This document shows positions 33,960 to 36,195 of a stretch of DNA of 64,000 nucleotides, piece by piece (the first letter of the stretch is position 1; each line of letters starts with the position of its first letter). The notes under the pieces were generated by a model, which was given only the letters and a program-made list of their open reading frames with translations, had not been told where the DNA came from and ran no database searches. Made by a program: the position numbers and the translations under genes. The stretch is from Escherichia phage 24-32N. The DNA lies in sequence record PV933157.1; one strand, written 5' to 3'.

Positions 33960-34801
33960 TCTGGTAGGTGGCTCAGAAGCTGCTGCTAGGTGTGGTAGTG
34001 TTTATAGTCCTGATGCTACTACTGGTCAGGATTATAGACGTGTCGGCTCCATACATAGCTTTTATCATCACTGTCATTATCCTGTGGAAATGCAGTGGTA
34101 AACACGGTGGTGACAAGCCGCCAGAGTAACAACAACAACCGAACCAGTGGATTGGAATACTCTCCCCAGTCCATTGGTTCAATCTAAACTAAGTGGAAAA
34201 GTTAGTTTTTTCTTGGGTGTAGAGCCTGTTGAAGTAAACAAAGAATCTCACAATGAATAGTTAATATCGTGAAGGGTTCTGTTAGAATCCTTTGAGATAG
34301 GAACTCCTATCATAACCTTTCTTAACTTAATCTTTGCCGTATGGCACTGACGCTAGGGTTGGCCCCCATCCGTCAGTCAGACTATTTTAAGAATGGGTTA
34401 TCACAGAAAATGTAAAGCAACATTCGGGTTAATCAATGGCCTCTCCCTATAGGGGCCATTTCTGAATCTAAGGCTATATCCCAAAGGTCGGTATCTTTGG
34501 GATAAGGCTTCAGATCCCTTATCAAACTAACGCTCATGTTGAGCACAACATTAACCAATAATGTCGGATAGTTCATTACGCTATTCATCCAGCATCGAGA
34601 TGTTAGGTCTTACATGTAAACTAAATCATAGGGTAAGGAGGGATTCGTCCTCCCTCCCCTATTATGACATCCTATCAATGAGTACACTTCAAGTGGTAGG
34701 CCTGCCGCTCTTGAAATTCATCTGCAAAGCTGGGAGTGTACTCTTTGATAGTTTTCGTAAGCGATTATGCGGTTTTTTAGAAACGAACCAGTAACATAAA
34801 T

Positions 34802-34837
34802 GCAAACGATGATGTTATTCTGATGGCGGCGTAATAG
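34802..34837 (+). ncRNA. tmRNA (ssrA)-like tag reading frame
   Basis: GCA AAC GAT GAT GTT ATT CTG ATG GCG GCG TAA TAG encodes ANDDVILMAA plus double stop; first four codons and AA-stop-stop end parallel E. coli ANDENYALAA tag; no ORF context or RBS. Confidence 0.35.
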
Positions 34838-35192
34838 CCTGTAAGTCAGCAAGGTCTTCCGATTCCTTGTAAACAAATTCGGCGCACTGGCCCGGTGTGA
34901 TTAATAATAGGCACACAACAGGTAAGAGCATTGGTGTACCAGAAGCCCGTGGGTTATGGCTAAGGAGTCCCAAGTGAGCGCATCAGTGCTCTTTCCGTTG
35001 TGGTGAATGCGCAGGCTGATGCGCAGTGGGACGTGGCTGACTCACGGGGATGGCTCAAGCGAATAAGCAAGCTCGACGCCGCCGAATAAGCGCCTTATGC
35101 CGGAGATCAGTACCGGCCACCACAACAAGTCCAGACGATATCTGAGTGACTATAAAAACAGATGGAGCCAGGTGGAATCCCTGGCAATTAAT

Positions 35193-35259
35193 TCCGGTGT
35201 AGGTACTAGCGTTGTGCACAAACGTGAGTGTTCTGGTTCGAGTCCAGACGCCGGAACCA
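35193..35259 (+). tRNA. D-armless tRNA-like domain with encoded CCA (possible tmRNA-like TLD)
   Basis: Acceptor TCCGGTG/CGCCGGA (7 bp with one G-U), T-arm TCTGG-TTCGAGT-CCAGA, discriminator A + CCA; only 9 nt where D-arm should be; one 5-bp hairpin in anticodon position. Confidence 0.4.
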
Positions 35260-35330
35260 ATTCAAAGTAGCATTGCACTAATCCATCCCGGAGTTCAAAG
35301 GCCAAACATGGAGCAGTGCTACTTTGAATT
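35260..35330 (+). repeat. long inverted repeat (14-bp stem, about 44-nt loop)
   Basis: AATTCAAAGTAGCA (35259-35272) pairs with TGCTACTTTGAATT (35317-35330). Confidence 0.5.
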
Positions 35331-35340
35331 AGAAGAATTA

Positions 35341-35453
35341 TGGTGGGTCTGGTGAAGTAGATAGGGTTCGATTCCCTCCAGTAGAGAAATCTACTAGCGT
35401 GCTTGGTGCACGAATAAGACTTAATACTGATGGTTCGATTCCATCCCCCACTA
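35341..35453 (+). tRNA. 112-nt tRNA-like element with internal hairpins
   Basis: Acceptor TGGTGGG/CCCACTA, 3' T-arm GATGG-TTCGATT-CCATC, plus second T-arm-like hairpin AGGG-TTCGATT-CCCT and two further hairpins inside; too long for canonical tRNA. Confidence 0.3.
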
Positions 35454-35753
35454 CCTATTTGAGGTGTAACAGTTAAATCCAGTTGCCGGAAGTGCTATTC
35501 TAGATACGCTGCCAATGTGTGAACGGTAAGGCTGTACAGGACTCGGACTCCCACCTCAAACCAAAGTCGCCAGGTACTTATGGCAAACGGGTAGTAACGA
35601 ACTAGTCATTCGTCAAACGCCCACCCAATTATGAGTCAGCAAGAACGCCTTCACTTAAACTTAAACAAAAAAGCTTAACGCAATAATTATGTAGGGGTAT
35701 GTAAGGATTGCGAAGAAGGAGCCAGTTAAAGCCTGGCATGACTCCCTTATTAA

Positions 35754-35829
35754 TACCCGGTAGGCTTAGTGGTAAAGCCCCACTAGTAAACCAACTAGGA
35801 CGCAGGTTCGAATCCTGCCTGGGTAACCA
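35754..35829 (+). tRNA. tRNA-like gene with encoded CCA; anticodon loop non-canonical
   Basis: Acceptor TACCCGG/CTGGGTA, D-arm GGCT-TAGTGGTAA-AGCC, T-arm GCAGG-TTCGAAT-CCTGC, A+CCA; anticodon stem CTAGT/ACTAG closes a 6-nt loop AAACCA (or 4 bp with 8-nt loop). Confidence 0.5.
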
Positions 35830-35835
35830 TAATAA

Positions 35836-35909
35836 GTCCACTTAGCTTAGACGGGGAAAGCAACCGACTAATAATCGGAAAGTCACTGGTTCAAATCCAG
35901 TAGTGGACA
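35836..35909 (+). tRNA. tRNA, apparent anticodon AAU (Ile?), unusual A34
   Basis: Acceptor GTCCACT/AGTGGAC, D-arm GCTT-AGACGGGGA-AAGC, anticodon arm CCGA-CTAATAA-TCGG, T-arm ACTGG-TTCAAAT-CCAGT; 6 nt after previous tRNA. Confidence 0.55.
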
Positions 35910-36157
35910 CCCATTCAGCAGTAACATAGTCCTGATTGCATTGCACTCTAAAGACAACACTGGTAAGACAGTCCAGTGACTGCTATTGTATTGTTATTCC
36001 CCTCGACGGGAATTTCGCTGGAGAATAGGAACTCCTTAAATCCTAGCCTGAGCGATATGAGTGGACTATCAATCCAAGTAGCACACCAGTTAAGCGTACC
36101 TGAACCTGGTACTCATAGAGTTCATACAAGCCTCCCAGCTATGGGTAAATAGTACTA

Positions 36158-36195
36158 AGTCCCCTGGAGCCGCCTCTCTGGGGGACTTTTTTATT
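36158..36195 (+). terminator. rho-independent terminator downstream of tRNA-like cluster
   Basis: AGTCCCC ... GGGGACT stem followed by TTTTTTATTT. Confidence 0.6.

Follow-up and report, generated by a model that had tools for sequence, protein, structure and literature searches.

A tag-encoding, tmRNA-like RNA in the tRNA slot of the N4-like Escherichia phage 24-32N

Transfer-messenger RNA (tmRNA; SsrA, RF00023) is among the described systems closest to the RNA reported here, which lies in an island free of open reading frames (ORFs) within a 64,000-nucleotide stretch of Escherichia phage 24-32N (PV933157.1; in the following, the window) and is referred to as the tag RNA. Both have an A-rich UAAAU-GCA resume context, a ten-codon tag that begins with AND or ANE and ends with (A/V)A (compare ANDENYALAA), and tandem stop codons in a hairpin that is followed by an H-type pseudoknot, whereas the tag RNA is devoid of a 5' acceptor strand, of its own T-arm-plus-CCA end and of a G3:U70 pair, and its core comprises only about 175 nt. 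T4-type tRNA clusters offer another parallel. The tRNA region of T4 contains tRNAs together with the species 1 and 2 RNAs, so that tRNAs are mixed with tRNA-like stable RNAs in one unit that is processed by tRNA enzymes and is mosaic between relatives; to our knowledge, however, no tag-encoding RNA has been reported from such clusters. Two-piece tmRNAs (RF04321, RF01849-51), which provide the best resemblance in Rfam (31 bits), also possess a separate tag-carrying RNA, their coding piece, but a true coding piece has a GGGG acceptor strand at its start and an acceptor piece as pairing partner, and the tag RNA has neither. A phage-encoded partial tmRNA is furthermore found in mycobacteriophage DS6A, albeit as the opposite half: the DS6A mini-tmRNA has the tRNA-like domain without the tag, while the tag RNA family has the tag without the tRNA-like domain. 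The DS6A RNA was reported as an inhibitor of host tmRNA and thus sets a precedent for interfering half-molecules (PMC4131195, PMC11915505).

The tag RNA and its family

The first-pass annotation of the window had pointed to a tmRNA-like tag, and the frame at 34802-34834 (Table 1) confirms it. This frame has no start codon, an in-frame UAG is located eight codons upstream, and the encoded peptide begins at an alanine resume codon and carries the hydrophobic/Ala C-terminus of a tmRNA degron. Around it, the window displays all the hallmarks of a family, namely the GUUUUCGU motif at the 5' side, an AAAUGC-AAY-GA resume context, a ten-codon tag, a stop-codon hairpin, a pseudoknot and a hairpin with an GUGAUUAAUAA loop; the 5' motif is followed by a small hairpin region, the loop of which (UUUUAGAAAC) is conserved, and then by AUAAAU and the resume-type GCA codon. 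In all 158 family loci the tag consists of ten codons plus a stop; translation of its 39 distinct nucleotide sequences gives 23 peptides, which follow the pattern AN(D/E)x xx(L/M)x(A/V)A. The final codon is always GCN, with C, U, G and A all occurring at the wobble base and the first two bases fixed, and the other two frames are closed by stops in 37 and 32 of the 39 variants, respectively. Wobble-only variation in the last alanine codon together with closed alternative frames constitutes a coding-type pattern.

The fold around the frame is conserved as well. As in tmRNA, the stop codon sits in a hairpin corresponding to helix 5 and is followed by a pseudoknot, which is perfect in 68 of 71 sequences despite 14 stem combinations; its two stems are paired in 98.8% and 89% of cells, with double-sided changes. 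Taken over the full structure as proposed, pairing holds in 88.7% of cells and 16 of the 26 pairs vary on both sides, whereas none of 500 shuffles reached the observed pairing and slid controls gave only 36-52%. Further downstream, the P1 version of the long helix that closes the variable insert is changed on both strands (AAGGGCGCUG/CAGCGUCCUU), as read from the alignment by eye. A covariance model, R1, was built from 71 non-redundant family members and finds a single copy in the window with 186 bits, the window sequence being one of the training members. Independent members in Erwinia phyllosphaerae, Rosenbergiella and Providencia scored 151, 118 and 90 bits, while an R1 search of phage N4 gave no match.

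The 8-mer GUUUUCGU is present in 71 of 71 non-redundant members, the module beginning with (UA)GUUUUCGU. In Sf17, Bas78 and phiEa104 a TTGACA-N17-TAnnnT promoter lies directly upstream, and the 5' motif thus represents the start of the primary transcript. In the window and in other Gamaleyaviruses the promoter position is instead occupied by the hairpin at 34672-34751, the stem of which recurs in Bp4 with another loop. We surmise that this hairpin is an RNase III-type processing site that replaces the promoter of the other phages.

A blastn search with a 211-nt query around the tag retrieved 754 phage records with 71-98% identity from unrelated groups, in which the RNA is almost never annotated. 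These groups comprise Gamaleyavirus, 45-49 kb siphophages of E. coli, Salmonella and Klebsiella, Kuttervirus and other Ackermannviridae, Felixounavirus, Mooglevirus and Kolesnikvirus, the lambdoid phage HK633, and P1 with its relatives. Moreover, 623 of 5426 complete E. coli genomes match, and the Prokaryotic Genome Annotation Pipeline (PGAP) annotates nothing there; 453 of the places are on plasmids, taken as P1-like from plasmid size, and 220 on chromosomes, where the two examples that were looked at are lambdoid spacers between the Q antiterminator and the holin gene. The seemingly empty spacer of about 1 kb between these two genes contains the tag RNA both in a prophage of E. coli E2865 and in HK633, while the same spacer of E. 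coli HS has only a 40-nt piece matching window positions 34984-35024. A pattern scan of GTDB species representatives gave 108 matches, of which an estimated two thirds are due to chance; filtering for the tag frame left 14, about ten of them genuine, and the genuine ones all belong to Enterobacterales (Escherichia, Pseudocitrobacter, Erwinia, Rosenbergiella, Rouxiella and Providencia). A P1-type tag RNA (tag ANDDLMMVAA, 5' motif as in the E. coli copies) was also noticed on a 5.9-kb contig binned as Bacillota (L240), probably a mis-binned fragment of an enterobacterial phage or plasmid.

No Rfam 15 family reaches its threshold on the tag RNA, and no description of the family was found in the literature searched. 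In the tmRNA database papers, phage tmRNAs are confined to mycobacteriophages, Bacillus phage G, a tRNA-like-domain-only form and 79 unnamed phage sequences, so that an earlier description elsewhere is still possible. The tag RNA family is thus widespread and apparently undescribed. At minimum, it is a structured phage RNA family of wide range that deserves a covariance model and annotation.

Table 1. Positions of RNA features in and around the tag RNA (numbered from the first nucleotide of the window)
Feature	Position	Strand	Basis
ORF-free RNA island, the tRNA slot between gp46/gp47 homologues and gp48-like ORFs	34130-36195	+	ORF/PHROG scan, comparison with relatives
Strong hairpin	34436-34462	+	folding versus shuffles
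Long imperfect hairpin (core 34476-34501)	34464-34517	+	-24.9 kcal/mol, z -5.2
Hairpin with 22-nt arms, 3' arm ending at the first bases of the tag-RNA module	34672-34751	+	fold z -4.7
Core of tmRNA-like tag RNA: 5' motif, 5' hairpin, tag ORF, stop-codon hairpin, pseudoknot, conserved-loop hairpin	34747-34921	+	family covariance model
5' motif UAGUUUUCGU	34749-34758	+	complementary to E. coli ssrA nt 97-106 at 10 of 10 positions
Tag reading frame GCA AAC GAU GAU GUU AUU CUG AUG GCG GCG UAA (ANDDVILMAA*)	34802-34834	+	ORF translation, family comparison
Hairpin containing the stop codon, like helix 5 of tmRNA	34820-34849	+	outer stem 100% of cells paired; one pair AU:41/GC:26
H-type pseudoknot CAAGG..CCGA..CCUUG..UCGG	34850-34882	+	covariation
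Hairpin with conserved loop GGUGUGAUUAAUAA	34890-34912	+	family pair statistics (helix 5 of the tested set)
Long helix ACAACAGGUAAGAGCAUUG/CAGUGCUCUUUCCGUUGU closing the variable insert	34915-35001	+	alignment
Accessory tRNA-like domain: acceptor UGUGGUG/CACCACA + A, D-like hairpin, hypervariable insert, T-like hairpin	34999-35128	+	family comparison
D-armless tRNA-like element, 67 nt: GUGCACA loop (GCA), canonical T-arm, encoded ACCA	35193-35259	+	relatives, folding
Hairpin, 18-bp stem	35259-35330	+	z -7.2
Composite tRNA-like element: two T-arms (35363-35379, 35430-35446), acceptor-like closing helix	35340-35456	+	varies between relatives
Conserved structured element, about 100 nt	35458-35560	+	98.9% identity with N4 over 89 nt; covariation in the closing helix UUUGAGGUG/CACCUCAAA
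Aberrant tRNA, 6-nt anticodon loop (AAACCA), encoded CCA	35754-35829	+	RF00005 40.1 bits
Canonical tRNA-Ile(AAU), 7-nt anticodon loop	35836-35911	+	RF00005 65.6 bits, ARAGORN
Intrinsic terminator, 13-bp stem 36157-36188 then TTTTTATTT	36157-36195	+	fold z -3.0

Relation to tmRNA and to host trans-translation

We were interested in how far the resemblance to tmRNA goes. In Rfam the tag region is aligned best by tmRNA_permuted, at 31.1 bits (E 6e-4) and hence below the gathering score of 47, and beta_tmRNA aligned as well; at the gathering scores Rfam accepts only two tRNAs in the window, and no tmRNA family. R1 matches E. coli ssrA, the sequence of which was verified against a RefSeq genome, at nt 90-137 (tag and helix 5) with 17 bits (E 0.002), and at the DNA level homology to host ssrA does not extend beyond words of about 10 nt. 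A canonical or permuted tmRNA was considered and rejected, as lowering the ARAGORN threshold to -ps80 produced spurious calls only and the Rfam scores stayed below threshold. The one-piece tRNA-like domain of tmRNA, with its 7-bp acceptor stem, T-arm and 3' CCA, was not found, RF00023 returning merely an 11-bit T-arm fragment, and in relatives with a visible promoter the 5' end of the RNA is the UAGUUUUCGU motif and not an acceptor strand. The window also contains no acceptor piece of the two-piece type (T-arm, 3' acceptor strand and CCA) upstream of the tag. Hence, the proposal that the island could supply ribosome-rescue factors holds insofar as it is an RNA-gene island that includes something related to rescue, but the tag is not part of a tmRNA and the window has no alanine-identity tRNA-like domain.

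Two candidates for a missing acceptor were rejected. In Bp4 and St11Ph5 the "tRNA-Ala(CGC)" located upstream shows U3-A70 in place of G3:U70, a D stem of 3 bp and a poor cloverleaf, and an acceptor stem made up of UUCGGCG (34878-34884, just after the pseudoknot) and CGCCGGA (35249-35255, in the D-armless element) is probably fortuitous, as about 0.2 chance matches are expected by our estimate. A genuine two-piece tmRNA was encountered in two IMG/VR contigs, L049 (10518-10820; 184.6 kb) and L063 (181.6 kb), where tmRNA_permuted scores 115.8 bits and the tag is ANDDVYMVRAAA; megablast of these tmRNAs against the GenBank phage collection gave no match. The start of the L049 coding piece, AUAAAU-GCA-AAC-GAU-GAU-GUU, is identical in the tag RNA of the window, and the two tags share their first 25 nt but nothing else. 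The contigs were therefore rejected as direct homologues and regarded as carrying a separate two-piece tmRNA. Nevertheless, the shared start suggests, by way of conjecture from the sequences, that the tag RNA family may descend from the coding piece of a phage two-piece tmRNA.

We consider it most likely that the tag RNA acts on host trans-translation. The explanation that we favour as a whole, with about as much doubt as confidence, is that an RNA of approximately 175-255 nt (the core at 34747-34921, with the long helix up to 35001) represents a functional derivative of the mRNA-like domain of tmRNA without an alanine-identity tRNA-like domain, a proposition for which we see the chances as evenly balanced. 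The tag RNA would be excised from the island transcript at the hairpin 34672-34751 and at the accessory tRNA-like domain that begins at 34999, and the freed RNA would then act on host trans-translation. The accessory domain may serve as a tRNA-like handle by which RNase P defines the tag RNA's 3' end, a role that true tRNAs could fill in Sf17, phiEa104 and P1. What would follow is more doubtful: possibly, rescued ribosomes translate the tag frame while host tmRNA-SmpB provides the tRNA-like function in trans, such that stalled chains receive the phage degron ANDDVILMAA. It is rather unlikely, though worth considering, that this "half tmRNA" docks on or competes with host tmRNA, perhaps through GUUUUCGU on the D-E-N-Y codons, and thereby rewrites or blocks the degradation tag during infection.

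The latter idea arises from the 5' motif, as all ten nucleotides of UAGUUUUCGU are complementary to E. coli ssrA nt 97-106, which cover the D-E-N-Y codons, a segment that we take to be the single-stranded start of the host tag frame. The same complementarity could instead point to an antisense or decoy inhibitor, in which the tag RNA remains undecoded and either pairs through its 5' end with ssrA 97-106 or titrates S1 or SmpB by means of its mRNA-like fold, so that host tagging is blocked or diverted. Invariance of the 8-mer is in line with such a role, and so are its position at the transcript 5' end wherever a promoter is visible, its retention in phiEa104, which has no internal AGAAAC partner sequence, and flanks that, judged by eye, lengthen the match with ssrA 96-106 to 9-11 bp in several lineages and to 14 in phiEa104. 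The duplexes, however, are AU-rich, their energies of -12 to -15 kcal/mol are equalled by 13-79% of shuffled seeds for most variants, such that thermodynamics lends the pairing no support, and some motif variants prefer other ssrA sites. In addition, all hosts seen are Enterobacterales, and inhibition leaves the wobble-type conservation of a ten-codon SsrA-like frame unexplained. In view of duplexes no more stable than shuffles and of hosts seen in one order only, antisense docking or inhibition is kept as a minority reading, and we regard the inhibitor as improbable.

Several observations weigh against an action on trans-translation, and some of them bear equally on another possibility, that the tag region belongs to a self-contained, non-canonical tmRNA. 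At its default threshold ARAGORN calls no tmRNA, and no G3:U70 acceptor helix exists among all T-arms with a complementary acceptor strand in the 64 kb. Trans-translation requires an alanyl tRNA-like domain tethered to the template, which is not present here, and we know of no physical route by which a ribosome could be passed from a host tRNA-like domain to a template on another molecule. As a tether to host tmRNA only the 10-nt complement comes into question, with a pairing energy no stronger than that of shuffles. The accessory domain itself is absent from 51 of the 84 family clusters, including P1 and the Felix O1-like phages, and a P2-like helix from the 5' module (GCGAUUAUGCGG) to the insert of this domain, with 10 of 12 positions matching in the window, fails to recur in other lineages and does not outperform shuffles.

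In the rearranged tmRNA thus envisaged, the accessory domain or the D-armless element at 35193-35259 would be aminoacylated and work together with the tag region. The conserved acceptor helix with its 3' A (CCA in some relatives) and the D-like and T-like hairpins speak for this, as does the presence of a canonical T-loop and D-arm in seven of the lineages among the 33 clusters that have the domain; one compensatory acceptor change (U7-A66, in L121) was also seen. Besides, the D-armless element ends with ACCA, and by eye its anticodon-like stem and T-stem both differ on both strands between relatives. Against this, the accessory domain has U3-A70 instead of G3:U70, its T-like hairpin in the window carries a 9-nt AGAUCAGUA loop, no P2-type pairing joins it to the tag module, and RNase P would be expected to split the two parts. 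Together with the many clusters without the domain, this makes a self-contained tmRNA very unlikely in our view.

Should the "half tmRNA" reading hold, the tag RNA would represent a new viral takeover of ribosome rescue and the first tmRNA-type template that works without its own tRNA-like domain. Decoding of the tag RNA, or interference with tmRNA, would give a handle on why some phages depend on or manipulate trans-translation and would challenge the view that a tag template must be joined, covalently or helically, to a tRNA-like domain of the alanyl type.

The tRNA slot of N4-type phages and its other RNA elements

The window belongs to Gamaleyavirus, the G7C-like N4-like coliphages. The 20 kb around the island are best matched by Escherichia phage IME11 (95.7% identity over 93%), and other Gamaleyavirus genomes are 92-93% identical. 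In annotated relatives the island is flanked by homologues of N4 gp46 (RuvC-like) and gp47 on the left and of gp48/gp49 on the right; the flanking genes are all on the plus strand, and the convergent virion RNA polymerase gene comes next. The island begins at 34130, where a 53-aa membrane-protein ORF that matches a PHROG ends, and extends to 36195, where another PHROG-matching ORF starts. The statement of the first-pass annotation that no credible ORF spans the region stands: the longest stop-free stretch amounts to 114 aa, the lowest value when the 64 kb are divided into 124 equally long windows, and the five internal ORFs have no PHROG family match, whereas the flanking ORFs do; protein-coding explanations were rejected on the lack of PHROG matches. 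The island would be transcribed rightward together with the replication genes and ended by the terminator at 36157-36195, a closing terminator that the first-pass annotation had recognised correctly.

An RNA-gene island of such density was also said to be unusual for an N4-like genome. This did not hold, since the same gap carries tRNAs in N4 and its relatives. In phage N4 (NC_008720) the gp47-gp48 gap spans 1519 nt (record positions 32113-33631) and is left blank by RefSeq, but ARAGORN at a lowered threshold (-ps90) finds four tRNAs there: tRNA-Asn(GTT), tRNA-Ser(TGA), tRNA-Thr(TGT) and tRNA-Pro(TGG). Two modules of the window recur in it, 35128-35263 as a 92.7% copy and 35465-35553 as a 98.9% copy, and it is likewise closed by a terminator at its end. 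In other relatives the gap is annotated with tRNA-Ile, tRNA-Cys or pseudo-Thr(ACA), "tRNA-OTHER", tRNA-Ala(CGC) or tRNA-Val. Six tRNA genes lie at the end of the first gene cluster of KP8 (PMC6950046), and tRNA-Ile-AAT, tRNA-Undet and tRNA-Cys-ACA were reported for the UE phages (PMC11927229). Comparison with relatives yielded covariation and conserved modules while refuting rarity. The gp47-gp48 gap is an ordinary tRNA slot of Enquatrovirinae, an array of horizontally exchanged RNA cassettes. Among close relatives its blocks are kept, swapped or missing, and such block-wise mosaicism is typical of phage tRNA regions. The island itself is thus ordinary and merits annotation as the tRNA region of N4-like phages.

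At least four tRNA-like elements with T-arms had been proposed for the island. T-loop motifs (GGTTCRANYC, plus strand) are indeed concentrated there, with five copies (35235, 35365, 35432, 35805 and 35888) versus two in the remaining 62 kb, but only two elements reach tRNA thresholds. These two (35754-35829 and 35836-35911) are the only tRNAs in the whole window accepted by both ARAGORN and Rfam at the gathering threshold, and none of the other T-arm elements matches RF00005 even at E up to 10. The first is a perfect cloverleaf with a 6-nt anticodon loop, the sequence of which is identical in five relatives, and annotation pipelines label it "tRNA-OTHER/Undet". The second is a canonical tRNA-Ile(AAU); A34 is unusual in bacterial tRNA-Ile. 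A tRNA-Ile(AAT) also adjoins tag RNAs in some IMG/VR viral contigs of 38-49 kb (L020, L048). The stretch 35181-35255, within which most of the D-armless element falls, passes as tRNA-Cys(GCA) in ARAGORN only once the threshold is lowered; the element ends a 135-nt module (35128-35262) that is conserved in all relatives and in N4. No Rfam match was found for the element at 35458-35560, whose closing helix reads GAGGUG/CACCUC or GAGAUG/CAUCUC in different lineages and GUGGGAUG/CAUCCCAC in N4.

The unusual anticodon loops raise the question of whether the island provides spare parts or decoys against tRNA-targeting defence, with the tRNA-like elements, the tRNA with the 6-nt loop and tRNA-Ile(AAU) acting as nuclease-resistant substitutes or baits and the tag RNA as the equivalent against an attack on tmRNA. 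Phage tRNAs reportedly evade anticodon nucleases, and the neighbourhood of the tag RNA fits: it is located between tRNA-Ile and tRNA-Arg in Sf17 and between tRNA-Arg and tRNA-Leu in phiEa104, tRNA-Asn and tRNA-Thr lie downstream of it in P1, and a "putative tRNA-Ala" precedes it in EP75; in HK633 it is found in the Q-to-holin spacer. However, we know of no nuclease that targets tmRNA, and a tag RNA without a tRNA-like domain cannot substitute for tmRNA. We thus give the proposal as a whole a slim chance, while the aberrant tRNA and the D-armless element, for their part, may act as decoys for anticodon nucleases.

An entirely different account would be that the island is a collection of decaying tRNA and tmRNA fragments left by recombination among phage tRNA clusters, one good tRNA being its only function. 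The mosaic blocks between close relatives, the several elements that fail tRNA models and the degenerate T-loop of the accessory domain in the window are what decay would produce. On the other hand, the tag frame, pseudoknot and hairpins are preserved by compensatory and wobble changes across unrelated phage families, the D-armless element and the element at 35458-35560 keep their stems through two-strand changes and are 93-99% identical to N4, and the 6-nt loop of the aberrant tRNA is kept in five relatives, so that we see very little room for mere decay. The remaining elements of the island look functional rather than decayed and could be processing punctuation, decoys for tRNA-targeting nucleases, or other. 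We infer that the tRNA-like and hairpin elements serve mainly as processing signals for RNase P and RNase III.

Of the two long hairpins singled out by the first-pass annotation, 34476-34501 proved to be the core of the strong hairpin at 34464-34517, whereas 34395-34430 is weak (z -1.1) and no better than shuffles. Finally, an exact 12-nt direct repeat, ATAGGAACTCCT, occurs near both ends of the island (34297-34308 and 36025-36036), with the first copy inside a small palindrome.

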